From the IMG/VR virus record IMGVR_UViG_3300023106_000001, positions 1,485-65,484 of that record: a DNA stretch of 64,000 nt; one strand, written 5' to 3'. The notes under the pieces are model-generated. The model saw nothing but the letters and a program-made list of their open reading frames with translations. It ran no database searches and was not told where the DNA came from. Shown piece after piece: positions 2,523 to 63,281 of the stretch. The position numbers and the translations under genes were made by a program. The stretch comes from a virus. Numbering within the stretch: position 1 is the first letter of the stretch; each line of letters begins with the position of its first letter.

Positions 2523-4505
2523 TTAATGTACGTCTCCATAAGATTTTGCAAACTCTGGGGAAGATTCAAATTGAATTGGTTGATTAAATGCCCTATTAAC
2601 TTTATCCATACTTTCTTGAATAATCTTTCTAGTTTTCTCCTCCTCTCCCTCATTAATATACCAGGAGGCCTCGTCATGTACCGTCATTATTGGCTTCACA
2701 CCTGCTTGGATTAAATACCATAAAAAAGTATCAAACACACAAGACCCGAAATTCTGATTACATGCTGAAAATTTAATATGATCCGCAGTTAGTAGTAGCC
2801 ATAACTTTGTGAAAGGGTTGTAGATCCAATTCTTACCTTCTACAGTTTTAACAGTTAAATTATCAGTATACTTTTTAACACTCCAGTTAAGATCCCAATA
2901 AGTTTTATGTAAAGCTTGCCCAACTTTTAAAGCTACCCCTGCTGTTTCTGCAATTTTCTTAGGAGATGCTGAATATGTGGCACTGTAGTTAGTGGTCTTA
3001 CATGTGTGGCGAACTTTAGATAATCTATTAAACTGTTCATATAGTTCTGTAATATTGTAAATTTTAAAACTTTCTGGAATTTCTTTATATAATTCTTCTG
3101 TATTTTTTTCCTCTTTTTTTGACCACTTACTATAGATTTTATAAAAGTCTATCTCATCTTCTGACATAAAATTTCCTAAAAGTGCAATTTTCAAATGGGC
3201 ATCATATCCAGGAGTATTTAGTGTTTCAACATACTCTTTATCATAAGGATAAATGGAACATTGCTTAGTCTTATCTTCAAGGCTTGATAAATCTGCGTTT
3301 ACTAATAATTTCTTTTCTGGAGCAATTAGACACTTTCTAACTAACTCTCCATATTGTGAATTATTTGAAGGTAAGTTAACAATTGGTTTTATATGTTTTA
3401 CGCGCCATGTTTTTGCCATTCCAGACCAAGATGCTGTAACATAACCATCTTCTGTCATAGTGCTTAAAAATGCCTTTAAATAGCCTGCTCTATGTTGTGC
3501 AACGCTTAATCCATCAAGTGATTGTAATTCAGGATTTTTTTCTATTAGTTTTTGTATACTTTTACACAAATTTTTCTCATCATCTCTTAATTGAGGAACT
3601 TTTCCATTTGCTCCATCTTTAAATAATTTTGGCTCCCATCCAAGTGATAGTAAGTAATCTTTCATTTGTTTAGTGCTCTGACAATTAGGTTCAGTGTATC
3701 CTGTAGTAACATTTATTTGACCATCATAATCTTCTGGTAAATTGCAAGCTTTAACCATTTCAAACCACTTCTTTCCACTTTCACTTAAATCTCCTGTTTT
3801 TTTATAGAGTACTTTTGGTCTATTTCTTGTTGATACTATAGGAATCTTTGGTAAGATAGAGTTGAGTTCAGTCTCTTTTTCAGATATAATTTTTTCAAGA
3901 TAAGCTAAGTTTTTTTTACATAGCTCTACATCTAGTTTTATCTTATTATTTTCTTGAATATGTTGTAATTCTATTTTAAAATTAGCTCTTGATATTGGAG
4001 AATGAATTTCATCATCAGTTTCGTATAATTGTCTTAATAAATCCAACTGTTTATCCCATAATAAGGCGTTTATTAAACAATCTCGTTCACAACGTTCAAC
4101 AGCTTTATCATAAGATAGATTTGCCCACTCTTCTGGAGATATTTTTACTTTTTCATACCCCATCTCGATACCCCATTCTTCAAGACCGTGTTTTAATCTA
4201 TCATTGTATAGGTAATGACTTAACGATAGAGAATCAATTATTTTAGCTTGGAAATTAATTTCTGGAAACATAATCTTAAGAGCTGGCAAATCATATCCCA
4301 GAAAAAAATGTCCTACAATAGTATTATCAGGATTTTCAAACAGTTTTTTTATATCTTCCTCTTTATTTGTTGATTTTATTTTCCATTCTTCCTCAACTTT
4401 CCAAGCTACAGATAATACGTGAAGATCCTCCTTAGATTTAATTACATCTAAAAGTCCAGTAGTTTCTATATCGGTTACGTATACATTATCTAGGTTATAT
4501 TTCAT
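2523..4505 (-). CDS. polA: family A (T7-like) DNA polymerase with 3'-5' exonuclease domain
   Basis: ExoI DIETTG, ExoII GHFFLGYDLP, motif A DLSSLE, motif B RHTCKTTNYSATY, motif C VHDE. Confidence 0.93.
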   Translation of the reverse strand: MKYNLDNVYVTDIETTGLLDVIKSKEDLHVLSVAWKVEEEWKIKSTNKEEDIKKLFENPDNTIVGHFFLGYDLPALKIMFPEINFQAKIIDSLSLSHYLYNDRLKHGLEEWGIEMGYEKVKISPEEWANLSYDKAVERCERDCLINALLWDKQLDLLRQLYETDDEIHSPISRANFKIELQHIQENNKIKLDVELCKKNLAYLEKIISEKETELNSILPKIPIVSTRNRPKVLYKKTGDLSESGKKWFEMVKACNLPEDYDGQINVTTGYTEPNCQSTKQMKDYLLSLGWEPKLFKDGANGKVPQLRDDEKNLCKSIQKLIEKNPELQSLDGLSVAQHRAGYLKAFLSTMTEDGYVTASWSGMAKTWRVKHIKPIVNLPSNNSQYGELVRKCLIAPEKKLLVNADLSSLEDKTKQCSIYPYDKEYVETLNTPGYDAHLKIALLGNFMSEDEIDFYKIYSKWSKKEEKNTEELYKEIPESFKIYNITELYEQFNRLSKVRHTCKTTNYSATYSASPKKIAETAGVALKVGQALHKTYWDLNWSVKKYTDNLTVKTVEGKNWIYNPFTKLWLLLTADHIKFSACNQNFGSCVFDTFLWYLIQAGVKPIMTVHDEASWYINEGEEEKTRKIIQESMDKVNRAFNQPIQFESSPEFAKSYGDVH

Positions 4506-5245
4506 AATTTATATTCTTCAATTATTTCCTCTATAGACATTCCTTTTCGTATTCTGTATCTAAATGCATTTGCATCAACCTTAATTAGATCAGCTAATTC
4601 TTTTCCATTGTATACATTTCCCTTATATTCAAGTTCAAATTTACCTACACCCTCTTTACCATACACCATTTCTTCTACAGAATATCCACTATTTCTTCTT
4701 TGTTGTATAGTAGTTCTACTCACTCCCGTTTTTCTTGCTAATTGTGCCTCAGTATAATACTCTCCCTCAAATAGTAGTTCTAATGAATCTCTTTTATTAT
4801 TCGCTTGCTCTTCTGTATTTGCCCATCTGCAATTTTCAAAACAATAGTTACCATTAACATTTTCTCTATCTAATGACAATCCTTCTTGAAATGAATTATA
4901 CATGTCTTCTACAAATAAATCAAAATTTTCCCATCTTTCGCAGACTCTAATACCTCTTCCTCCATAACTACTATAACAGGCTCTATTAGGATTACTGCAT
5001 CTAGATTTCATATTTTTCCAAATAGAATATAGTCGGTGATCTTCTTTTTTAGGCCTAGATTTTCTTAAAGTTAAACTACAATCTCTGCAACTTTTAGATT
5101 TGTTAGTGGTTAAATTATCTTGGGTGATATTTTTAATCTTCCCACATTCACACAAACATTTCCATACTCTCTTGTTATGTTTATCCCTTTCAACTTCTTC
5201 TAAAACTAACCAACTATTAAAATATTTACCCTTTAAATCTAACAT
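4502..5245 (-). CDS. HNH homing endonuclease
   Basis: WKCLCECG, WKNMKSRC, YGGRGIRVCERW, LDRENVNGNYCFENCRWA; C-terminal HTH-like repeats. Confidence 0.88.
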   Translation of the reverse strand: MLDLKGKYFNSWLVLEEVERDKHNKRVWKCLCECGKIKNITQDNLTTNKSKSCRDCSLTLRKSRPKKEDHRLYSIWKNMKSRCSNPNRACYSSYGGRGIRVCERWENFDLFVEDMYNSFQEGLSLDRENVNGNYCFENCRWANTEEQANNKRDSLELLFEGEYYTEAQLARKTGVSRTTIQQRRNSGYSVEEMVYGKEGVGKFELEYKGNVYNGKELADLIKVDANAFRYRIRKGMSIEEIIEEYKL

Positions 5246-5978
5246 TATTATTCCTCCAATTTAAATTTTTCAAAAAACTCCTGCTTTGATCTACAATATT
5301 TCTTAGTATAGCCAAACTCTCTGTAAATTACTGCCTCTACCCATACATCATCTTCTTGTATTTCACAGTAGTCTAGTATTACGTAGGAATTGTTATTTAT
5401 ATAGTGTATGTATAATTCCATTTTTTCTGTCTTTTTATTCTTTTCCCGCGAAATTATTTAACTAATAAATCTCCACACTTCAAACACTTCTTAGTTTTTA
5501 CTTGACCTTTAGTTAATATTGTTATGTCAGAAGTAAATTCATAATAAATATGATCACAACCTTTTTCCTTTCTATTATACCAAGCGTTTAATACAGATTC
5601 TATGCTCATAAATTTCTATTTTTATCAAATTTATAAGCTGTTGGTATTCCTAGGATCATTGAATTTACAAAATCTTGATCTAATTCTTTTTTCGCGGCCG
5701 ATTGCCTTAGTTCTTCGCTTGCCCACTCTTCATGTATTTTCTTAAAGTATTTCATAACTTATCCTCCAATTCAATTACAACAAATCTTTTAACTGTTTCT
5801 TCCCAATTATATGGTGCATCTTCTATATAAAAAGGCTCACTATTAGATTTATATTTGACTTCCTCTAAACTTTCTTCCCACTTATCAACTTTGTCTTCAT
5901 ACCAATATTTATGACTGTCAGCATTAAAGCTTTCAATTAATCTTGTTATATCTTCTTCTGTTATTATGTATGTTTTCA

Positions 5979-6668: not shown

Positions 6669-7097
6669 TTAACATAATTTCAACGCATTAAATAATCCCT
6701 TCTCAAAAGCCTCCTCATAAGATTTAAAATCTATTCCGTACCAATCAGCAGGACTGTTTATGTGAGCTATAGGAGTTTTAATTACTTTTATATGATTCCA
6801 GTTTGAAACATGTACTATCCATCTAGTTTCATCTTTATAATGTACTTCTGTATCTCTTGAAACATCTACATCTATATTATGTTCTTCTCTTAACCAGTTT
6901 TTAAGTACAGACTGAGTTGGTCTCCAATACTTTACAAATTCTTTAGCATATTCTAGCTTTTCTTCAAAATTATCGCCTATATAATCCATAACAGAAGATT
7001 CCTCATCAGCTATATCAATAAAGTCCCAACAGGGAATATTATACTCTTTACTTTCTGCTAGAATTGCTGTTTCTATGTCTATTATCTTTTCTTTCAT
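6669..7097 (-). CDS. hypothetical protein, paralog family A
   Basis: ETAILAESK...PTQSVLKNWLREEHNI...FKSYEEAFEKG. Confidence 0.7.
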   Translation of the reverse strand: MKEKIIDIETAILAESKEYNIPCWDFIDIADEESSVMDYIGDNFEEKLEYAKEFVKYWRPTQSVLKNWLREEHNIDVDVSRDTEVHYKDETRWIVHVSNWNHIKVIKTPIAHINSPADWYGIDFKSYEEAFEKGLFNALKLC

Positions 7098-7776
7098 CTT
7101 TTGTTATTTATTTTTGTCCCGCCGAAAATTAACAAGCTCTTTCAATAAACTGTAGTCAAACCCATCCACTGAATTTACATAGTCTAAAACAGCTTTCTTT
7201 CCTGCATCCGTTTTTATATAATTTCCTATAGCTACAGATATATTAGGGATAGTTGTATATTTTCTAGAATCTAAAGCTTCTTGGCCTTTTGGAGTTAATT
7301 CTTCTATTTTTATACAGTTGTAATACTTGGATAATCTTTCCACATCTTCATAAAACTTCTTATCATTACTCATTTGATTACACTCCATTACACAACCTTC
7401 ATCACTCATAATACAATAAGCTTTTACATTCTCATCTTCTAAGGTTGAAATATAGTATTTATTTTCCATGTTTGCTAAAATTAAATCCTTTCCTAATTAT
7501 ATACAATTGAGCGATTCTTTGTTCTGCTGTACCAAACATACTACTGTAAAGCTTGCATAAATATGGGTCTTCTTTATTTACTGTTTGCCACCATTCTTTC
7601 ATTATAATTTCTTTATTATTTTTATTTCCGCGCCATTTGATACTAATATATGATTTTTAGTAAATGAATCTGCCCAAGCATCATGAAATCTAAGTTCAAA
7701 ACTTTCCATTTTAGGATATAATCTCATCCATCTAAGTACTTTCTTCCAAATGGGTGTTTTTAGTTCTGTTGTTACT

Positions 7777-15853: not shown

Positions 15854-16708
15854 TTATATCTTTAAGTGATTCACTATACCATTCCCAATTATCAACTCCA
15901 CCAATTTCCAAAGCAGAGAGTATTTCATCCCGTTTTAGTAATTTTTCATACTCTGAATATTCAATTTTAACCTCGGAATCAACAACAATTAATTTCTTTT
16001 TAGACTCTAATTCTTTGATGTCTGATTTTAATTTATCGTAATCCTTAATTGCCATTTCAGTTAAAAATTTTCTGTTCTCAACAACAGCATCCATCTTATA
16101 AATTTCTGATTTGTTGTCAGACAATTGTTTTTCTTGTTGCTTAATCAAGCTCTTATTTTCGGCAACAATATCAATCAGTCCGTTAAGAACATCTTTATTT
16201 CCTTTAATTTTATCAACAAGACCTTTGTTTTCTCTCCACTCGAAAGGAACATCTTTTAAATCTTTAGCTGGAACATAAAATAATTGCTGATCTTTTATTT
16301 TATAATCCTCGATAATTCGCTCTACAACATCATAGGCTTTTGCAACTGATTCATCACAGTAACATGTTGATTTGTGACCAACCATACAAGCATCACAACC
16401 CCTGAAAGATTCTGCGATATGATCTAAATCAATATCTTGTATTTCAATATCTACGAGTATTTGATAAAAATCAGCTACTTCATGTTTTTGTAAAACTAAT
16501 ACAGGGCGATTGTTGTAATATTTAATTGTTTTTAATATATCCATAATTACTTAATTTAATTTTATTATCGTCTTTTAATTCTTCTAAAGCTATTCTTACA
16601 CTATATACAGAACAGTTTAATTGTTTTGCTATGTAATTTCTGTTTATTACTTGTTTTTCGCGCGAAAATAAATTTAAAACAGATTCTTTATTTATTTTAT
16701 TGTATTTT

Positions 16709-16945
16709 TTACTCACTTTTGTATAATACTATTCTTCGTTCTATTGATTTTTCGGTAAATTTGTCATTAACGGTGGTTATCGTTAGAGATTTTATAAAAT
16801 TAGTCTTTAGGTCTACGATGTGTTTAACTATGTTACCATTTGGCTCATATAAAAATCCATCTAGTGTAAATAGTTCAGTACATCGTTTGTCATTGACCCA
16901 GTAATCCCCGTTATCCCTATCAAATAAATAAAATGTTGTTTTCAT
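16709..16945 (-). CDS. hypothetical protein, paralog of 9240..9482
   Basis: shared blocks listed for 9240..9482. Confidence 0.7.
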   Translation of the reverse strand: MKTTFYLFDRDNGDYWVNDKRCTELFTLDGFLYEPNGNIVKHIVDLKTNFIKSLTITTVNDKFTEKSIERRIVLYKSE

Positions 16946-17521
16946 AGTTAAGTAGATTCTTTCGTTATTTTACTGTATTTATGCGCCAAATGATAATTCC
17001 TAATATGATTAATGTTACAAAAACTGTTTTAATGAAAGTGATATTTGCTTTTCGTTGTTCTTGATCTGTCATGATTTAAATGTTTCTTTATAATAAGATT
17101 CTTTTTCATATTCTCCTTGATAATGATCATCATAACCTTTATGATAGGAGGTTTCTAATTGCTCTTCTTCGGTTTCTAGAAAAGAATTGCACAGTATTAA
17201 AACATCACTAGAGCTGTTTAATTGATTTTCTAAAAATGCATTTTCCATACATTCTATTAATTGTCGAATCGCTGTCTTCATACTTAATCTTTTGTTTGTT
17301 TACAATGACCATCTAATAAAAACCATACATTTGTAATGTCTGTCCATTTTCCTATCTCTTCTAAAATAGCTGAAGGTTCACATTTCAAATATTGTAAACT
17401 GACTATGTGGCCATTTTGATAAATGATCGTATATTTTTTCATATCTATTATTTTTGTTATTGCAAACTTACAACTAATTTATTTATCTTGCAAGCTTTTT
17501 TGTAAAAACTTTATATAAAAT

Positions 17522-20210: not shown

Positions 20211-21705
20211 TTATTTATAATTTTTAAATTTCGGCGAATAAAAAAGACAGCAGAAAACTATCCACTGTCTTGAATGCAAATATAAGAATATAATACTACT
20301 TATACAAACTACTTAATTTTAATCAAACTGTTTAAATTCTCTGTCTAAACGCTCTAAAAGTTTAGTATTATAATCTACTTTTGCGATTAACTCTTCTAAT
20401 GTTTTTGATTCATTTTGAGTTTTATCTACGAAATAGGTTAATGCCTGACAAATTCTCGTAAAATAAAGTTTTCCTTCATATAAATACTCTTCTGTCTTAC
20501 CTGACTTTACTTTTTTACCGTTCTTTGTTTCTAATTTTTCTCGCTCTCTTATTTCATGGAAAGTTAAAATTATTCCATTATCTCCGTCACTTGTCAAATG
20601 ATGACTTGAATCTAAACTAATCGTACTTTGTTTTTCAAATGTTTTATTCATCTTTCTTTTTCTCTAAATTAATACCTTGAATTTCATCATCTCCCCAATC
20701 TTCTGAATGTTGACCGAAATAGTAAGATAACTCATACCCGTCCCTTTCCCATTCTACCTCAAAATAAAAAATTGTGAATTTTGATCCTTCTCTAAAATAG
20801 CCATCTTCTTCTCTTGAAATTTCTTTCCAACCGTCTTCGTCCTCATTTTCTAAGCTAAAACAGTATTTTTCTAATTCAGAGGATGATAATTTAATAATGT
20901 CTTCTATTTTCATTTTATTTGTTTTTAAGTTTATAAATATCCGAACGCAATTGCGCAATCTTCCCCAATATCACATAAATTACCTTCCTCTTCATCATAT
21001 TCCCAATCATCCTCATATTCATGATCTGGTTGTTCATAATACTTGGCTACTTTTTCTTCTAAAGCGTACCACTTATCATTTACTTTTTGAAGTTTATTTA
21101 ACAAATCTACTATTTCAACTGTAGATAATACAACTCCGTCTTTTAAAATTAATCCACCATCTCTCGTGTACATATCTTATTGTTTTAAAATTTCTAATCT
21201 TTTTTCGGCCAATTCTCTATCAAAGAAAGGCATTTGTCCCATGTATCCATGATCATCATCTATTTCATATGCGCCTATTGTGCAGGAAGAAACAGTAAAA
21301 CCGAAAATTTTAATTTCTTTCTTAATCCAATAAGAAGTAGGACAGCCCTTATCATAAGGAGGTTTTTCTATTAATGTATACATTGTCATAACTTTTCTGT
21401 ATAAGATGATACTGATTTAAAAAATGAATTCTCATTTAAACCTTTTTGATAAGTTAACCCATCCAATGTAACTTTAAATCCCATATCAAATAAACTCATA
21501 GTTTTTATAACCCCCTTTAATTTATCTGCATTATCACTAACTGCTACTGAATTCATAGCTGATTGAATTGCTTTTGCAATATTTTTGACTATTTCGTCAA
21601 CTCCATTACATCTAGGGTCAATGAAAGGACTGACACTTAAAGCAGTTTGATATTCTGTTTCTGAAACATCTTTAAAATCCATATTTGTTATCTTTAGTTA
21701 AAATT

Positions 21706-21810
21706 AAGGAGTTGCGACCTCCTTTAAGCCCTTTAGATTATCCTACAGTAAATATGGCTGTCCATTACTGCTTCGCTTCAGGTGTCTAACCGAGACATCG
21801 GCTCTAAAGC
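21706..21810 (-). ncRNA. candidate structured RNA (multi-stem junction plus hairpin)
   Basis: CTTTAGA/TCTAAAG closing stem containing TGTCT/AGACA and CAGTAA/TTACTG; separate AAGGAG/CTCCTT hairpin. Confidence 0.45.
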
Positions 21811-21816
21811 TATTCG

Positions 21817-21899
21817 TGGAGGATTGGGGAGTCGAACCCGTTGTAAGTACCCGCTAAGGCTTTTCTCCAAATATTTACCATTACAATACGCAATCCCCC
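21817..21899 (-). ncRNA. tRNA-like RNA with 9-bp acceptor / 3-bp T stem, G3:U70 and A73; no convincing anticodon arm
   Basis: 5' GGGGGATTG pairs with 3' CAATCCTCC-A; T arm GGG-TTCGACT-CCC; D-loop-like TGGTA; own promoter at 21948. Confidence 0.6.
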
Positions 21900-21947
21900 C
21901 TTACCATTAATTTCGCGGAAAAAGAATTAAAAACAGCTTTTCCTCTG

Positions 21948-21955
21948 CAAACTTA
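21948..21955 (-). promoter_or_regulatory. Bacteroidota-type -7 promoter element (TAAGTTTG)
   Basis: matches TAnnTTTG upstream of the tRNA-like element. Confidence 0.65.
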
Positions 21956-21970
21956 CAACTATTATTTTAA

Positions 21971-22681
21971 TTAACCAAAATATTTCAAATAAACTTTATA
22001 ATCCTCCGAAATTTGTCCAGCTACTTTTCTGATATTTTCTAAAACCTTTTCTGCCCTCTCTTTAGAATATGGTGTTGGTATATAAATAACTTCCCCTGAT
22101 AATCTGATTCTATAGTTACCAGTACCTTCAAAAGACAGACCTTTTCTACCCAAACCACAAACAGAAGAATTTAAAATGTTATGTCCAGATTGTTCTCTGT
22201 CATAACAGTATAAAGTTGTCTGACCATATTCTTCAGAAGCATAAAAATCTTTCTTTTTCTCGATATTTAAAGTTTTATAATCTAATATTTCTACTCCATC
22301 TTCTCTATACCAAGATCTATCTATATACCCCTCACATACGAAATCTCCAAAATCCACACATATCTCATCTTCATAAACACAATTATCAGGATAATCTATT
22401 TTGTCCCTTAGAATGGCTAAATCACTATCTAAAAGAGGTGTTTCGTATTCTTTTCCTAAAGCATTATGTTCAATCTTAGTTCCGCAGTATCCCCCAAAAT
22501 CACTGAAAACATTTCCTCCTAAATTAACACCTGAAAAATATTGCACATAATAGTCATTTTGATACTCTGGATCTTTATAAGATGTATATTGACTATAAGA
22601 TATTTTGTACTTTCCTTTATGTTGAGGATACTTATTATTTCTGTCTTCGTATTTTTTAGGTAAAATTATTTCTTTACTCAT
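21971..22681 (-). CDS. PD-(D/E)XK nuclease (RecB/Cas4-like phage exonuclease)
   Basis: ISYSQY, GYIDR, ILDYKT, Q...Y motifs. Confidence 0.8.
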   Translation of the reverse strand: MSKEIILPKKYEDRNNKYPQHKGKYKISYSQYTSYKDPEYQNDYYVQYFSGVNLGGNVFSDFGGYCGTKIEHNALGKEYETPLLDSDLAILRDKIDYPDNCVYEDEICVDFGDFVCEGYIDRSWYREDGVEILDYKTLNIEKKKDFYASEEYGQTTLYCYDREQSGHNILNSSVCGLGRKGLSFEGTGNYRIRLSGEVIYIPTPYSKERAEKVLENIRKVAGQISEDYKVYLKYFG

Positions 22682-23646
22682 TATAGCGTTTTAAAGAATT
22701 CGTTAACTTGATTTGTTCGTGATTTATTTATTTCTTGCAGTTCTTTTTTATTTTGAGCTGTAACCTCTACTTTTTCTAAATAGTGAGCCAGAACTAATTT
22801 TTTAACTGTTTCTTTATCTTTTTTCAAAATTTTAAGATTCTTCAAATATGTTTTAACCTCTTGACCAAACTGTTTTGTTTGATAAAGTTTTTCTAATATC
22901 GGTAATTGTTGTATTAAAGGTTCTGTTTGCGTTGTATTATTTTTGTCTACAAAACTTTCAAATGGTTGCTCGAAACGCATTTTTTTAAAGATATTAATAC
23001 ACGAAAATACATCTTCTTTAACGTATTTACTTATTTTTTCTATACCATTATTCCAGTATTCATCTGAAACTTGACTACCATCTAAATCTGTTTTTGGGCT
23101 AGGTAGATCAAAATGATAACACATTTCATCTAAAGAACTGGCATAGTAATGAGTGCCTTTAAATACTTCTTGAATATCGATCAATCTGTCTAAATTCCAC
23201 TGTTTTTTTCCACTTGTCACAAATCTGTCTGGTAATATTTCACAGACATCAAAATATCTGTATCCATTATTAATCACCATTGGTAAGTCAAAAGCAATAC
23301 CATTAGAAAAGCACATGTAATCAAAAGATTGAGCTATTGTACAAAACTGTTTTATAACCTCCTCCTCCGTCCCTTCTAAAGATTTAATGTGTACTTGACT
23401 TTCTTTAATAAATCCTACACCAATACACACTATCTTAGTGTAGCACATTTTTAAAGCCGCTTTTTTCTGGTACTCTAAAATAACTTCATCGTTAGGTAAA
23501 AATTCATCCGTATCTCTGTTACGAGTTTTTTTACGAAATAATTCAAATTCTTTTGAGTTTATATCTAGTTCTTTTGTTCTTCTTACATCCTCTATATCCA
23601 TGAAAAGGATTTTTTCTTGGTCTACTCTCTTTATTGTCTGATTCAT
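22681..23646 (-). CDS. stand-alone 3'-5' exonuclease (DnaQ/PolB-exo-like)
   Basis: DIE, NGIAFDLP, SLDEMC...PSPK..LDGSQV, YVKEDV. Confidence 0.85.
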   Translation of the reverse strand: MNQTIKRVDQEKILFMDIEDVRRTKELDINSKEFELFRKKTRNRDTDEFLPNDEVILEYQKKAALKMCYTKIVCIGVGFIKESQVHIKSLEGTEEEVIKQFCTIAQSFDYMCFSNGIAFDLPMVINNGYRYFDVCEILPDRFVTSGKKQWNLDRLIDIQEVFKGTHYYASSLDEMCYHFDLPSPKTDLDGSQVSDEYWNNGIEKISKYVKEDVFSCINIFKKMRFEQPFESFVDKNNTTQTEPLIQQLPILEKLYQTKQFGQEVKTYLKNLKILKKDKETVKKLVLAHYLEKVEVTAQNKKELQEINKSRTNQVNEFFKTL

Positions 23647-23648
23647 TT

Positions 23649-24386
23649 TTATTTATTATTAAACCAATAGTAATATTCATCTATTGGGTTTGTTGTTAAA
23701 CATTCTGTATAGCCCTGAAATTTTATTTTTGGCTCATATTTATAGTTTTTAAACTCTTTCAAAAATCTTTGCTCTAAGTTATAGGCAGATACCATATCTA
23801 ATTCTTCTGTGTATTTTACAAAAACTTTGTAGTATTTACGTAACTGGTTTAACCTATACTCGAACCTATGTTTACTGACTATACCTACTTTGTAAAATGA
23901 TTCACCAGTATTTGAAAGTATCAGGACGTAGATAAACCCTTCTATGTTTTCTATAAAATCTTTATGTGAAATAATAGTCGTATCGTTATACATTATAACT
24001 TGTCTCATACAATATGGGCATCCTTGTGTGTTAGCCATATGATGAGAGGGTCTTTGTTTATATTTATAATCATGTATTTTACACCTTAAAGAGATATTAT
24101 CTTTATTATTAATGTAAATAGCTTGGGAATAATCTATAAAATCAGCATCTTCTCTAAATTTTCTACTCCTTTTAACCCAAAAATCTGTTTTGTTTATCGC
24201 TGATTTTATACTCAACTCTTTCCATTCTAATAGAGAATCTGCACACACTTCTAATTCACCGAATTCTGAATTAACCCTTACTTTAGTATTATCATAATAT
24301 TTTAAATTGATAACTTGGTTATAAATTTTAGGATTTTTATCTTTAAGTTTCTTTGAAAACTCTTCACTTGTTAACTTTTTACACAT
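23649..24386 (-). CDS. putative homing endonuclease (zinc ribbon plus GIY-YIG-like domain)
   Basis: CKIH...GCPYC; FIYVL..YKVGI...R...LEQ...FQGYTEC. Confidence 0.7.
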   Translation of the reverse strand: MCKKLTSEEFSKKLKDKNPKIYNQVINLKYYDNTKVRVNSEFGELEVCADSLLEWKELSIKSAINKTDFWVKRSRKFREDADFIDYSQAIYINNKDNISLRCKIHDYKYKQRPSHHMANTQGCPYCMRQVIMYNDTTIISHKDFIENIEGFIYVLILSNTGESFYKVGIVSKHRFEYRLNQLRKYYKVFVKYTEELDMVSAYNLEQRFLKEFKNYKYEPKIKFQGYTECLTTNPIDEYYYWFNNK

Positions 24387-24459
24387 ATTTTAAACTACCA
24401 AATATTATTTTATTATATTGTTAATCTTGATTGCTCTATTTCTTTTTTAAATTTCTCAG

Positions 24460-24822
24460 CTATTTCTTTTCCGTACTCTTCTTTTTGAAGCAAAGAGCGG
24501 ACGGGACATTCGAATTCACGCAGATATCGTACACGCTGCTGACACGAAAAGGATCATTATAGTACCAATTATAATATTTACGCTCGTTTTTATCTTTCAT
24601 ATTTGGTTTCCAACCTTTATTATAAAAAGCAACTATCATTACTTCTTTTTGATAATACTTTAAATGTAAGGGAATATTGGAATAGTCTTTTTCAAATTGA
24701 TCCTCTGTTGTGTTATGGTATTTATAAACTTCATCCATTGGAGACTTTTTCTTAGCTTCTTCTAATATCTTACTTAACTGTTCTACAGTATACTCTGATC
24801 CATTAATGTTAATTGTTTTCAT
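24460..24822 (-). CDS. DGR target protein 1 (C-terminal variable repeat; possibly frameshifted just after VR)
   Basis: contains VR1; shares KYY.W.Y..PFR...VPSALCFKK with target 2; start overlaps the end of the RT gene. Confidence 0.88.
   Translation of the reverse strand: MKTININGSEYTVEQLSKILEEAKKKSPMDEVYKYHNTTEDQFEKDYSNIPLHLKYYQKEVMIVAFYNKGWKPNMKDKNERKYYNWYYNDPFRVSSVYDICVNSNVPSALCFKKKSTEKK
24493..24553 (-). repeat. DGR variable repeat VR1
   Basis: 61 bp colinear with TR; 11 mismatches, all at TR adenines. Confidence 0.93.
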
Positions 24823-25741
24823 ATTTGTTTTTTAAATTTACAGAATTGGAATGAATTAACCAACTATTCCAATCTTTTTTGTTTTTACTCTTTTTATAAT
24901 TCTCTTTAATACTTTTTCTTATTAATATATAATTCTTTCGGTGTACATAGCCTACAAAGTCGATACCTCTTTTTTCAACTGGAAATATCTGGTATGTATT
25001 TTTTATTTCAAGTCCCAGCGTCTTTAGATATAATCTTATTTTAAATAAAATATAATGCAATTCCTTTTTATTATTCGATAAAATCACAAGATCATCCATA
25101 TATCTAAAATAGTACTTAACATTTAAATTTTCTTTTATGTAGTGATCTAAGTAACATAAGTAAAAATTTGCAAAATATTGACTAATTAACGATCCTAAAG
25201 GTAACCCAATCTCATTAGAATCTATTATTTCATCAAAGATTGTTAACAATTCTCTATCCTTAAACTTTTTTCTTAAAAGCCGTTTTAATATATTATGATC
25301 TATATTTTCATAGAACTTTTTCACATCCAACTTCAGACAGTATTTATTACATTCTTCGTCTTGCAAGGATTTTCTTAAATCACAAGAGGCTTTATGTACA
25401 CCTCTACCTTTAATACCACTGTACGTATTACTTATAAAACTATTTACAAAAATTTCTTTGGTTTTTAACAGTATTGCCCAGTGCATGATACGATCTGGAT
25501 AATAAGGTAATCTTGCTATTACTCTATGCTTTGGCTCAAATATTTCAAATTTACTATAATTAGATGTTCTGTATTTTCTATGTTGTAGTAATTCATTCAA
25601 CTCTTTTAGATTCTCATCTTCTCTTAATATATGTTTTTGAACACCGTATTGTTTTAATTTACCTAATCTGGCATTTCTATCTGCTAATTTTAGATTATTT
25701 ACTTCAATTATACTCTCATATAAAAATCCTTTTCTCTTCAT
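24809..25741 (-). CDS. DGR-type reverse transcriptase
   Basis: PKHR.I, DRIMH, LKLDVKKFY, GLPLGSLISQ (DGR-typical SQ), YFRYMDD, IDFVGY. Confidence 0.95.
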   Translation of the reverse strand: MKRKGFLYESIIEVNNLKLADRNARLGKLKQYGVQKHILREDENLKELNELLQHRKYRTSNYSKFEIFEPKHRVIARLPYYPDRIMHWAILLKTKEIFVNSFISNTYSGIKGRGVHKASCDLRKSLQDEECNKYCLKLDVKKFYENIDHNILKRLLRKKFKDRELLTIFDEIIDSNEIGLPLGSLISQYFANFYLCYLDHYIKENLNVKYYFRYMDDLVILSNNKKELHYILFKIRLYLKTLGLEIKNTYQIFPVEKRGIDFVGYVHRKNYILIRKSIKENYKKSKNKKDWNSWLIHSNSVNLKNKYENN

Positions 25742-25849
25742 TTATTTTGCTTCAAGAGGCTCCTGTTCAATCTATTTACTAGGGAGCCGAGCGTTAGTTT
25801 TATTTTTTACCTTGTTGGTAGGGATATATTCTACATTATTAAAAAGCAG
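25742..25849 (-). ncRNA. DGR spacer RNA region between TR and RT
   Basis: non-coding; minus-strand hairpins TACC-AACAA-GGTA followed by an A-run, and GGCTCC...GGAGCC. Confidence 0.55.
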
Positions 25850-25910
25850 TAGAGTGGATGGGACATTCGAATTCTCGTAGTTATTGTTCACGTTGTTGAT
25901 ACGAAAAGGA
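25850..25910 (-). repeat. DGR template repeat (TR)
   Basis: intergenic, AAY-rich (CCT TTT CGT ATC AAC AAC GTG AAC AAT AAC TAC GAG AAT TCG AAT GTC CCA TCC ACT CTA); 20 adenines. Confidence 0.93.
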
Positions 25911-25945
25911 GGGGAATGACCAATTGATAAATACATCCTATTTTT

Positions 25946-26509
25946 CTATTTCATATAATTTTCATATAAACTAAAAAACTCTTTGTTTTGGTGGGCATAA
26001 ATTGCAATTTCACGTTTCTTGAAGCAAAGAGCGGACGGGACACTCGAACTCTCGCAGTAATAGTTCACGAAGTCGATACGAAAAGGATTCCTATACCACC
26101 AAATGTAGTATTTATACTCATTAGAGTCTGACCAATCTAACACATGTCTTTCATTAAGAGATTTAACCCAACAAATAAGCATTTGAAATGATAAAGATTT
26201 AGAAGTTATATTAGCTTTTATCAGTTTTTTATACTCAATTACATCTTCGTCTTCTTCTCCTAAATATTTTATTACATCATCGAAACTCTTAATATCCTCC
26301 CAATTATCACGAACATCAAATATCTCTTTAACTACAGGCAATTGAACATCTGTACAAGCCTTAATCATCTCATTAATTTGCTTTTCTGTGAATTTTATTG
26401 TTTCGCTGAATGGATCTTCTTGTGCGTATTTGGCTAACTTTGGCTTCCAAGTATCACAAGAAATTTCCCAAATCTTTTGTAGTTCTGATCTTTTTATTTC
26501 TGTTTTCAT
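25946..26509 (-). CDS. DGR target protein 2
   Basis: contains VR2 near the C-terminus (PFRIDFVNYYCESSSVPSALCFK). Confidence 0.9.
   Translation of the reverse strand: MKTEIKRSELQKIWEISCDTWKPKLAKYAQEDPFSETIKFTEKQINEMIKACTDVQLPVVKEIFDVRDNWEDIKSFDDVIKYLGEEDEDVIEYKKLIKANITSKSLSFQMLICWVKSLNERHVLDWSDSNEYKYYIWWYRNPFRIDFVNYYCESSSVPSALCFKKREIAIYAHQNKEFFSLYENYMK
26027..26087 (-). repeat. DGR variable repeat VR2
   Basis: 61 bp colinear with TR; 11 mismatches, all at TR adenines. Confidence 0.93.
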
Positions 26510-26646
26510 AATGTTTCGTTTATTACAATATATTTAATATTATCTTCTGTTTCTTTTACTTCTCCTTGTGCCAGTATTTGTTGAGCTGTTTCTGGATGTA
26601 TTTCGTGTATTAACGCTAGTGTGATCCCCATGTATATTACTTTCAT
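26506..26646 (-). CDS. 46-aa ORF heading the DGR operon (absent from the ORF track)
   Basis: MKVIYMGITL...INETL*; its TGA overlaps the ATG of target 2. Confidence 0.55.
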   Translation of the reverse strand: MKVIYMGITLALIHEIHPETAQQILAQGEVKETEDNIKYIVINETL

Positions 26647-26669
26647 ACGCTACGCTTTGTATTGTTTTA

Positions 26670-26677
26670 CAAATATA
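26670..26677 (-). promoter_or_regulatory. Bacteroidota-type -7 promoter element (TATATTTG) upstream of the DGR operon
   Basis: TAnnTTTG about 24 nt upstream of the first ATG. Confidence 0.65.
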
Positions 26678-27860
26678 ATGTTTTTATTCTTTTTCCGCGG
26701 AAATTAAAAAATTCTCAGCATACTCATCAAACTCCATTTCATGTTCCTCATTATAATAGTCAACCCACTCACCATCATCAAACATTTGAACTAAGATAAT
26801 ATTTGCATAATCTGGAATAAAGCTATTTTCAAACAAAAATAGGTGTTGATTGGCCAAAGCTTCACTTACTAAATATGCTTGTTCTTCATCTTTTACTTCC
26901 ACTGTAAACGGTTTACATGGTATTTGTGGATAATGTAATACTCTTAGTTTTTTCATAAATTAAATCTTTTTAGCATAAGTGTCCGTATCATAGTCGTAAA
27001 GGCATCCTGTATCACAAAATATAGATTTTAATTGATTTAGGCCATATCTTATCTTACCTTCTACTATTAGTTCTGTAGTTGGTAGATTACCTGTTGCTGA
27101 GAAATATTTGTCCCCTTTTTTAAATTTTTCTCTTGCGGTTTTTAGAGTTGTCATAGTTTGTATATATTTATTGTTCTTAGAAATAACTGTGTTGGTTTGT
27201 CTTGCTTTACTCTGTTTTCTTTTTGCATTCTTAGGTGAGTTTCAAGAAATTCTTTTGTTTTAATCTTTTTTTCCGCCGATTTTGATTTGTAGTCTTCAAT
27301 AGAATCTAAAACTAGTTTTTTATTGTATGTCATACTATTTACAGTGTTTACAACAAGTTTTATTATTCTTCCAATATAGTTCACTACTTTTAACTACTTC
27401 ACCACAATTAGTGCACATTTCAATGTTGTTTTCTGATTCATAATCAGTGTAATCATATTTATAATCGTCTGCAAAATCTCCCATTATCTCATATTTTTTA
27501 AGTTTTCAATTACAGTATTAAAATCAGTTTCAAACTGTTCTTTTGTTCGGTAATCATAATATTTATCTCCCTGAGTATAAGCGTAAAATAGTTCATCGTA
27601 CCATTCTTTTTTATAAAGTCTATTAGGTATAATTGGCCTTGCATCACAGAAAGAAAAATCTCTTCTTCTGATTACATTATTTTCGAATTGAACCTCAATT
27701 AGTTTCATTCTACTCCAGTTATTTTCTTTGTCGTGCTCATAAATACTGTGTTCAAATTCTACAGCATAAACACTTCTTGAACTCCAATAATATCTGTCAA
27801 CCATCTCATAAGTATTAATTACTTCGGTTTTTATTTCTTCTATGTTTACTTCTTTTACTT

Positions 27861-28151
27861 TCATGTTTTTCTTATTATTTCTACAATGTCACTATCTGTG
27901 TTACTAGCCTTCAGTACTCTTCCTTGATGTGTTCTGGTTCCAGTTGCTTTTAAATCTTTTTTCTCCGCGACCTCGTGTTCATAAAAACCATCAGGCAGAG
28001 GTTGAACATAGTAAATCACTCTCCCATCTTTACATACTAATTGATCCCCACGCATACAGCTTCTTAAATCTACACCTGTTTCATCAAACTCTAAATCAAA
28101 CACTTTTCTTGTGTATTCGTCTATGTTGAATTCTTCTTTATTTTCCATCAC
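27861..28151 (-). CDS. hypothetical protein, paralog of 32764..33003
   Basis: DL..C..GD.L..K.G...YV..L...HEV...GTRT..G.V...DI.EII shared. Confidence 0.7.
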   Translation of the reverse strand: MMENKEEFNIDEYTRKVFDLEFDETGVDLRSCMRGDQLVCKDGRVIYYVQPLPDGFYEHEVAEKKDLKATGTRTHQGRVLKASNTDSDIVEIIRKT

Positions 28152-61637: not shown

Positions 61638-63281
61638 TTGGAGAATAAAGTAGTTTACGGCCAAGAAGCCAGAAAGTTATTAAAAGAAGGAGTAGATTTA
61701 GTTGCAAATGCAGTTAAAGTTACATTAGGAGCAAAAGGAATGAATGTGATGTGCGTAAGAGATTTACTTTTGCCTATCATTACTAAAGATGGTATTTCTG
61801 TAGCTAAAGAGATTGAATCAGAAGATCCTATTATTAACGCAGGATCATCCTTAATAAAACAAGTATCAAATCAAACAAATGAAGTAGCAGGAGATGGATC
61901 TAGTTCTAGTGTTGTATTAGCACAAGCTATTGTACATGAAGCCGATGAAGTCCTAAACACTGGAAAAGTTAATGCAATTTCTCTAAAAAGAGGATTAGAT
62001 TTAGCTTTAGATTTCTCTTTAAAACATTTAGATAAGTTAAAAACAAAATCAAGCAGTTTAAAAACTTTAAAAAATATCGCGAATATTTCTACTAATGGAG
62101 ACAAAGAAATTTCTGATCTAGTTGTAGATGCTATTAAAAAAGTCGGTAAAAACGGCACAATAAAAGTAGAAGAAACAGAAGAATTAAAATCATCTGTAGA
62201 ATTATCTTTAGGATACGAATTAGATGTGCCTTTTTCTTTGGCGGAATTTATTAATGACCGTGAGAAGTTTGAAGCTGTTTTTGAAGACATGAATGTTTTA
62301 ATTTATCAAGGACACCTAAAAGATAAAAGACAGTTGAATAAAGCTATTGAATTATCAACAACTAAAGATGAAAATGGAGAATTAGGAGTATTTGAAGGCC
62401 TTTTAATTATTTGTGATAACATTTCTGGCCACGTTCAAAAAGAGATTTTAGAATTTAGTTATCAAGGTTTTAAAATGATGAATTTAAGATCGCCTTCTTT
62501 CGGCGCAAGAAAGAATGAAACACTTAAAGATATAGCATCTCTAATAGGCGCAAAAGTTTACAGTGAAGACTTAGGTGATGATTTAGATAATGTTACTTTA
62601 GAAGGCCTAGGACACATTGACAAAGTGATTTCAGATGCTAATAAGTCAGTTTTAATCGGTGGAAAAGGAAATCAAGAAGAAATCAAAGAAAGAACAGCAA
62701 TTGTAAAACAGCAAATTAAAAACATCACTGGTGGTAAAAAAGAAACAGAGTATGTAAAAGAAAGATATTCTAAATTAACCAAAGGAGTTGCTGTAATTAA
62801 AGTAGGGGGATATTCCGCGCCAGAAAAAAGAGAAAAGACAGACAGAGTAGAAGATGCTTTATGCGCAGTCAGAGCTTGTTTAGAAGAAGGATATGTAGCT
62901 GGTGGAGGTGTAACCTATTTAAACATATCAAATGCTCTTAAATCGGCTAAAATAGAAACTAGAAATGAAGATGAGCAAAAAGGAGTAGAAGTTTTAGTTA
63001 AAGCTTTAGAAGCACCTTTCAAACAAATTCTTGAAAATGCAGGAATGCAAGACCAAACAGAAAACTATATTCACAATATTCAAAATTCACAATATTATGG
63101 AGATGGAATTGATTTACAAACACAAGAATATGTAGATTTATTTAAAAGAGGAATTATTGATCCAACAAAAGTAGAAAGGTTAGCTCTTCAAAATGCAGTA
63201 TCTATTTCAGGAACATTCTTAACTCTAGGAGCAATCACTTATAACAGTGCATCAATATTTATAGCAAATGGCCAAAAATAA
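61638..63281 (+). CDS. groEL: phage-encoded chaperonin GroEL
   Basis: ANAVKVTLGAKG, ITKDG.SVAKEI, AGDG, GVAVIKVGG, EEG.VAGGG, GIIDPTKV; TTG start. Confidence 0.96.
   Translation: MENKVVYGQEARKLLKEGVDLVANAVKVTLGAKGMNVMCVRDLLLPIITKDGISVAKEIESEDPIINAGSSLIKQVSNQTNEVAGDGSSSSVVLAQAIVHEADEVLNTGKVNAISLKRGLDLALDFSLKHLDKLKTKSSSLKTLKNIANISTNGDKEISDLVVDAIKKVGKNGTIKVEETEELKSSVELSLGYELDVPFSLAEFINDREKFEAVFEDMNVLIYQGHLKDKRQLNKAIELSTTKDENGELGVFEGLLIICDNISGHVQKEILEFSYQGFKMMNLRSPSFGARKNETLKDIASLIGAKVYSEDLGDDLDNVTLEGLGHIDKVISDANKSVLIGGKGNQEEIKERTAIVKQQIKNITGGKKETEYVKERYSKLTKGVAVIKVGGYSAPEKREKTDRVEDALCAVRACLEEGYVAGGGVTYLNISNALKSAKIETRNEDEQKGVEVLVKALEAPFKQILENAGMQDQTENYIHNIQNSQYYGDGIDLQTQEYVDLFKRGIIDPTKVERLALQNAVSISGTFLTLGAITYNSASIFIANGQK

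Follow-up and report, generated by a model that had tools for sequence, protein, structure and literature searches.

The DGRs of phages have so far been understood almost wholly as tropism switches that diversify tail proteins with the C-type lectin fold, and uncharacterised VR domains have been assumed to be further CLec variants (Roux 2021; PMC8144416). The locus studied here raises the question of what purpose such an element may serve when it diversifies small soluble proteins, the only targets found near the RT here as well as in dozens of related elements. The cassette is located in a 64,000-nucleotide stretch of viral DNA (hereafter, the window; positions 1,485 to 65,484 of the IMG/VR record IMGVR_UViG_3300023106_000001) that forms part of a viral record of 140,992 bp, which is complete and has direct repeats at its termini. 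Along the minus strand, it comprises in this order a 46-aa ORF, target 2 with VR2, the TR, a 108-nt spacer, the RT, and target 1 with VR1.

A preliminary description of this DNA had reported a compact two-target DGR in which a single TR aligns without gaps to two VRs, each with 11 mismatches confined to TR adenines and each with its own set of substitutions. Our realignment bore out all of these features and placed the three repeats on the minus strand. The TR (25850-25910) is a non-coding sequence of 61 nt that contains 20 adenines and, in the reading frame of the VRs, seven AAY codons. Both VR1 (24493-24553; minus strand) and VR2 (26027-26087; minus strand) deviate from it at 11 positions, all 11 of which are TR adenines while no other base is affected (hypergeometric P = 4e-7 per VR, given 20 A in 61 nt), and the substitutions in VR1 and VR2 differ from each other when both are aligned to the TR. 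A search with the A-to-N pattern of the TR recovered exactly three copies, namely the TR, VR1 and VR2, in the window as well as in the whole genome, with no further TR/VR copy in the complete 140,992 bp and 0 matches in shuffled sequences; the two small targets are the only VR-bearing genes of the whole genome. In the VR frame, the TR encodes a repertoire of ~4e10 peptides in which a stop codon cannot arise. A 54-aa ORF that spans the TR (25772-25936) was taken to be probably spurious.

The last three differences between the TR and the VRs (TR positions 51, 55, and 60) are identical in VR1 and VR2. Because these 3'-most changes look like fixed differences between an IMH and an IMH*, the stretch subject to diversification would be restricted to ~35 nt (TR 25866-25900), which corresponds to ~24509-24543 in VR1 and to ~26043-26077 in VR2. 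The IMH-like 3' ends occupy positions 24493-24508 in VR1 and positions 26027-26042 in VR2, where this segment is GC-rich; a GC-rich end of 14 nt is the same in both VRs and departs from the TR at two positions, as expected for an IMH compared with an IMH*. In the intact form of each target, the end of the VR is 60-80 nt away from the stop codon. Inspection of the DNA 3' of the VRs revealed no convincing conserved hairpin or cruciform.

The RT (24809-25741; minus strand) is a protein of 310 aa that matches RVT_1 (3.6e-17) and phrog_1423 (2e-95), and the SQ and YMDD motifs previously ascribed to it are both present, the former as LGSLISQ (GxxxSQ). Among annotated sequences, it is closest to RTs from the DGRs of crAss-like phages, with which part of the gene shares 63-69% nucleotide identity. 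The TR sits 108 nt upstream of the RT, and the intervening spacer (25742-25849; minus strand) contains a hairpin at 25808-25820, an A-rich tract at 25798-25807 and a second hairpin at 25758-25788. This spacer RNA is kept in six phages, with compensatory changes at 4 of its 15 pairs. We regard it as a relative of the Rfam RT motifs and not as a scored member, because its position and both of its hairpins coincide with theirs while the scores are sub-threshold: the window spacer reaches 29 bits against RT-14 (gathering threshold 48.1), and the spacers of relatives yield sub-threshold matches to RT-17, RT-14, and RT-18 of up to 38.7 bits, the highest being that of contig L092 against RT-17 (cut-off 40.4). 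RT-10, a further member of that group of RT-associated motifs, fills the equivalent spacer in BPP-1 (PMC5737381).

A search of the whole genome for Avd (PF05635) gave no match at E <= 1. The sole small ORFs of the cassette are the likely spurious one across the TR and the 46-aa ORF (26506-26646; minus strand), which overlaps the start of target 2, is not an Avd and has no Pfam match; it is kept upstream of target 2 in the related phage L092 (86% identity). The absence of Avd is usual for crAss-type DGRs (PMC12386605). As to expression, the host-type promoter formerly assigned to the cassette reduces to a TAnnTTTG motif (Bacteroidota -7-like; 26670-26677, minus strand) 24 nt upstream of the 46-aa ORF; this motif match marks a possible cassette promoter, and 3 kb of this strand contain four such matches. 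A sigma-70 promoter scan performed no better than it did on shuffled sequences.

Insight into the activity of the element came from the metagenome contig L098, which is 98.6% identical to the window over 1,709 nt. Twelve of the 25 differences between these two DNA sequences fall into 29 nt of VR2 (26049-26077), and all 12 are at TR-adenine positions. The TRs differ at position 25874, which is G in the window and A in L098; at the equivalent position, both window VRs keep the G and VR2 of L098 has a mutated base. Since the VRs of each genome follow their own TR, information was passed from TR to VR after the window phage and L098 had diverged. The variation at TR-adenine positions anticipated in the preliminary description is hence found in VR2, and the VRs vary between populations, which is the opposite of the invariance that had been equated with an inactive element. 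Judged from these sequence comparisons, the DGR is active in nature. In homologues of the targets at 85-95% identity, most differences are likewise at AAY-coded positions: among five homologues, these columns contain four or five different residues, while the non-A codons of the VR are invariant. The synteny of target 2, TR, RT, and target 1 recurs in four additional viral contigs of 136-143 kb (L012, L092, L093, and L094), each with A-only TR/VR pairs of its own, and L099, whose RT is 53% identical, possesses a separate TR for each of two small targets. When the window is compared with L092 and L093, the flanking genes are 95-98% identical, as against only 30-59% for the block reaching from target 2 as far as the exonuclease gene. 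With A-only TR/VR pairs, a DGR-type RT beside the TR, VRs with an IMH at the 3' end of the targets, and variation between genomes, the cassette is a genuine DGR.

The two proteins diversified by this DGR flank the RT on both sides, as the ORF map confirmed. Target 1 (24460-24822; minus strand) has 120 aa as called and is truncated by a 1-nt frameshift, and target 2 (25946-26509; minus strand) has 187 aa, made up of a ~65-aa N-terminal helical domain and a variable domain of the phrog_11581 type. Both are small and lack a signal peptide, in agreement with the preliminary description; neither a hydrophobic N-terminus nor a TM segment is present. They were recognised by the same family HMM (E-values of 3e-44 for target 1 and 5e-32 for target 2), and both match phrog_11581 (1e-6 for target 2), a family of unknown function. 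The idea that the targets have only their C-terminal domain in common was dropped after a profile comparison of target 1 with target 2 (99.3%, E 3e-20), in which ~85 aa and not 39 aa proved to be shared; on the strength of this comparison, we consider them to be paralogues over that length. The core of the family consists of a long helix ending in NEGW-x-PDW, a YYPWF strand, a second strand, the variable stretch, the motif S-x-V-x-SRLCFK, and two helices. In target 1, columns 94-105 are hypervariable among close homologues, and in target 2 the variation across 20 homologues is concentrated at aa 145-156.

A CLec-like fold had been expected for these proteins and was not found in two high-confidence models (pLDDT 90.7 for the AF2 model of target 2); a comparison of the models with solved structures returned no matching fold. 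Pfam contains no family for either of the targets or their relatives, a sequence-profile search of the PDB with the targets gave nothing below E 0.05, and their matches in the ESM Atlas are restricted to unnamed viral clusters. From 1.8 billion cluster representatives, 118 related clusters were retrieved, mostly of 110-160 aa and with a few tandem two-domain forms. Our search for longer or fused members of the family uncovered only tandem duplicates and one fusion to a lectin-like Lcl_C/DUF1566 domain, and no enzyme fusion that would hint at a function.

The placement of the targets among nuclease and RNR genes was likewise upheld: they are part of a replication arm that encodes a DNA polymerase, RNR, a 3'-5' exonuclease, a PD-(D/E)XK nuclease, and a homing endonuclease, and a P22 gp17-like gene is also found among the neighbours of the cassette. 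The structural module is encoded on the opposite strand, ~36 kb from the replication arm, and starts at ~62 kb. The best matches of TerL are to the Cellulophaga phages phi17:2 and phi4:1 (35%) and to crAssE-Sib (32%), which suggests that the window phage is related to crAss-like lineages. The DGRs of crAss-like phages (LMMB, cr6_1, cr53_1, crAssE-Sib, and the Zeta group) possess the closest annotated RTs and, as in the window, are mostly devoid of Avd, but their targets are tail, tail-collar or RBP proteins with CLec domains that are encoded beside structural genes (PMC7290462, PMC11054128, PMC12386605).

The family to which the targets belong is by no means restricted to the window phage. Its motif is present on at least 395 IMG/VR contigs, among which we examined 80 further loci encoding family members. 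A DGR RT was found within 6 kb at 71 of these 80 loci, and A-only TR/VR pairs at 69; two targets are present at 59 loci, three at seven, and four at one. All target ORFs at the 80 loci encode proteins of 91-217 aa, and the median TR match is 76 nt. At two annotated loci, the neighbouring genes code for repressors, an HNH nuclease, a RecE-like exonuclease, SSB, and a DnaD-like replication initiator, and two such records contained no additional VR when searched whole. Approximately 70 further viral loci have related RTs (37-48% identical) and almost all of them possess targets of 350-780 aa, a lectin-type VR, and a TR of ~115 nt.

A tblastn search with a family member led to LoVEphage and to two cultured phages, PV4-TP1 (gp58) of Phocaeicola and BI-TP1 of Bacteroides. 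The LoVEphage protein AUSP0022_00089 (OY725593.1; 194 aa) belongs to the same family as the window targets (hhalign 98.7%, E 1.6e-16, full length), from which it is distinguished by an insertion of ~27 aa (an LWGG...G-type VR half). Within its gene is a VR that differs from the LoVEphage TR by 12 mismatches, all of them at TR adenines. Like the window targets, it is soluble and encoded away from the structural genes; its neighbours are methyltransferases, a Lar-like protein, and a PAPS reductase, genes of the DNA-modification or anti-restriction type. However, the small LoVEphage protein is the second, remote target of a 113-nt TR, whereas in the window two paralogues flank the RT as the sole targets of a 61-nt TR. 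The same LoVEphage TR also has a VR beside the RT, in a gene reported to encode a tail collar fibre (PMC8525569). A second, non-structural DGR target was described in Quimbyvirus by Benler et al. 2021 (PMC8008677), and its description matches the LoVEphage protein, so that the remote LoVEphage target probably corresponds to 'ORF 80/84' of Quimbyvirus. Since the LoVEphage homologue fits this report, neither the family nor the notion of a non-tail target for a phage DGR is new. Two-target DGRs are also known from the gut phages nd4/nd12 and from Toutatis, where one of the targets is a small single-domain CLec protein of unknown role, 'tgt2' (PMC10743442; bioRxiv 10.1101/2024.10.15.618418). What is new is that small proteins are the sole targets of a phage DGR; a literature search returned no paper describing a class of DGRs with only small early targets. 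This layout is widespread in phages and barely described, which suggests that DGRs have a function within the infected cell, too.

With regard to mechanism, the element resembles the BPP-1 DGR (mtd-avd-TR-brt) in its A-specific transfer from TR to VR, the location of the VR at the 3' end of the target gene, an AAY-rich TR, a GC-rich IMH-like end, and a structured RNA between TR and RT, which is RT-10 in that phage (PMC5737381). It differs in that BPP-1 possesses Avd and diversifies a single target, a tail-fibre protein that adopts a C-type lectin fold, while the window encodes two non-tail targets of 120-190 aa and has no Avd. By analogy with retrohoming in BPP-1, the 310-aa RT would copy an RNA that spans the TR and the structured spacer into cDNA, misincorporating nucleotides opposite adenines, and this cDNA would take the place of the homologous ~45 nt at the 3' ends of the two paralogous genes flanking the RT. 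As a consequence, 11-12 codons, seven of them AAY, would be rewritten, and these codons specify a beta-strand and loop close to the C-terminus. The TR through which this would proceed measures 61 nt, compared with the 134 bp of the BPP-1 TR.

We favour, with moderate confidence, the view that the targets are hypervariable proteins whose putative binding activity would be exerted inside the infected cell, and that they are not receptor-binding parts of the tail. Intracellular binders are favoured because the targets have neither a hydrophobic N-terminus nor a TM segment, because their genes are located in the early/replication arm, and because their relatives reside in early, recombination or anti-restriction neighbourhoods. 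Such proteins might act, for instance, against variable host or competitor factors. The context in the window phage and in its relatives speaks for a role outside the virion, and a putative function in anti-defence or host takeover, as envisaged in the preliminary description, is plausible. If the targets do act inside the cell, DGRs would represent a general engine for the evolution of intracellular binders in the arms race between phages and their hosts, and the family would constitute a compact natural scaffold of ~110 aa that tolerates ~4e10 variants. Cultured LoVEphage-like Bacteroides and Phocaeicola phages bear a homologous target, which makes its role amenable to experimental testing. 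More tentatively, and as a proposal that we would not yet call probable, these elements may form a large and essentially undescribed class of phage DGRs whose sole targets are two to four small cytoplasmic early proteins, built on a scaffold without a solved match that is not detectably a C-type lectin, and serving as programmable intracellular binders. Within such a class, the binders could be, for example, hypervariable inhibitors of variable host-defence or competitor-phage proteins, and the hypermutation brought about by DGRs would have a part in counter-defence in addition to its role in host recognition.

The strongest competing explanation holds that the small targets are associated with the virion, as accessory receptor-binding proteins, decoration proteins or ejected cargo, and that the DGR serves host recognition as it does in BPP-1. 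The position of the genes is compatible with packaging into virions, and crAss-like phages package cargo proteins. The TR of LoVEphage feeds both the reported tail collar fibre gene and the homologous small protein; as the small target and a tail protein there have their VR in common, one and the same variable peptide is able to serve a receptor-binding protein as well. In addition, the clade to which the RT belongs mostly serves CLec tail proteins of 600-740 aa, and the lectin-like Lcl_C/DUF1566 fusion is a member of the same family. Against an attachment to the virion, however, stand the location of the targets in early, replication or recombination blocks and not in tail modules, both in the window and at the annotated loci, the lack of a tail VR in the three genomes that were searched whole, and the properties of the proteins themselves, which have only 120-190 aa and are devoid of trimerisation, fibre or Ig domains. 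We consider a virion-associated role unlikely.

Less probable still is a scenario in which the targets are freed at lysis and bind host surface glycans, mucus or competing phages as decoys or adhesins at the level of the community. Lysis would be the sole exit route for small soluble putative binders without export signals, and lectin-like fusions do exist in the family; nothing specific speaks in support of a release of this kind, however, and the early-module position suggests a function before lysis.

That the element is a decaying relic, with a non-functional RT or target 1 and with VR differences left over from past activity, is highly improbable: the missing Avd and the frameshift in target 1, here and in L094, would be in keeping with decay, but the RT ORF is intact and retains its catalytic motifs, neither VR contains a single non-A mismatch, VR2 is different in the 98.6%-identical genome and follows the point difference in the TR, and the frameshift may be an assembly indel at a hypervariable, homopolymer-flanked site.

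The frameshift itself can be delineated by comparison with the closest relatives of target 1 (85-90% identical), all of which have 136 aa with two helices after the VR. In the window, these two C-terminal helices are encoded in the -1 frame down to position 24413, so that the frameshift and the out-of-frame C-terminal tail together cover positions 24413-24494 (minus strand). Programmed -1 slippage at AAA AAG is not favoured, as the closest relatives have the whole protein in a single reading frame. The lesion is most simply explained by one T missing from the run at 24492-24494, at the 3' edge of VR1; a base missing from a nearby A run is a possible alternative. It may reflect an assembly error at a hypervariable site, a scar of retrohoming or real decay. 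Since L094 also carries an indel, in this case within its own VR1, target 1 is perhaps dispensable in the window phage, or the assembly is wrong at this site.

When positions 20931-27864 of the window were compared with the corresponding regions of two syntenic viral contigs (L092 and L093), the pattern of divergence was that of a mosaic. The proteins encoded by the flanking genes are 95-98% identical, while the block formed by target 2, the RT, target 1 and the 3'-5' exonuclease gene retains only 30-59% identity. This confinement of the divergence between highly conserved flanks suggests that a cassette-sized block has been exchanged or is diverging fast. Between target 1 and the exonuclease gene, the window carries on the minus strand (23649-24386) a gene for a homing endonuclease of the T5orf172/treble-clef (GIY-YIG-like) type; a 31%-identical counterpart is present in L012, another contig of the same synteny, and the locus comparison revealed none in L092 or L093. 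Immediately upstream of the DGR cassette lies a minus-strand gene (26684-26956) for a P22 gp17-like protein (PF17420, 5.5e-15; phrog_1510, 'superinfection exclusion').

A further syntenic relative, L094, possesses a target 1 gene (6673-7099) that is split by an indel within VR1; apart from this lesion, every difference from its TR falls at adenines. Together with the frameshift in target 1 of the window, the L094 indel suggests that these VRs often acquire indels or are often misassembled.

Small-target DGRs are also found in other arrangements. In the phage represented by contig L099 (1833-3988), whose RT shows 53% identity, two small targets are positioned on either side of the RT and each has a TR of its own (71 and 79 nt); the components are the same, but they are connected differently. 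On the viral contig L184 (6318-7752), a single RT is preceded by four tandem VR-bearing small genes belonging to the same family as the window targets. The small-target domain also occurs in a natural fusion: a 399-aa protein (P0184) from a 97,677-bp contig joins an Lcl_C/DUF1566 lectin-like domain (aa 87-181) to a small-target domain (aa 244-396).

The structural arm begins with a plus-strand gene for a GroEL-like chaperonin (window 61638-63281). Two large HNH/homing endonuclease genes adjoin the terminase and major virion protein genes (4222-5409 and 16177-17508 of the genome piece L006). The late arm, outside the window, contains three ORFs of 2,100-2,233 aa (within genome positions 95589-125509; pieces L008 and L009), which bring to mind the giant proteins that crAss-like phages carry in their virions.
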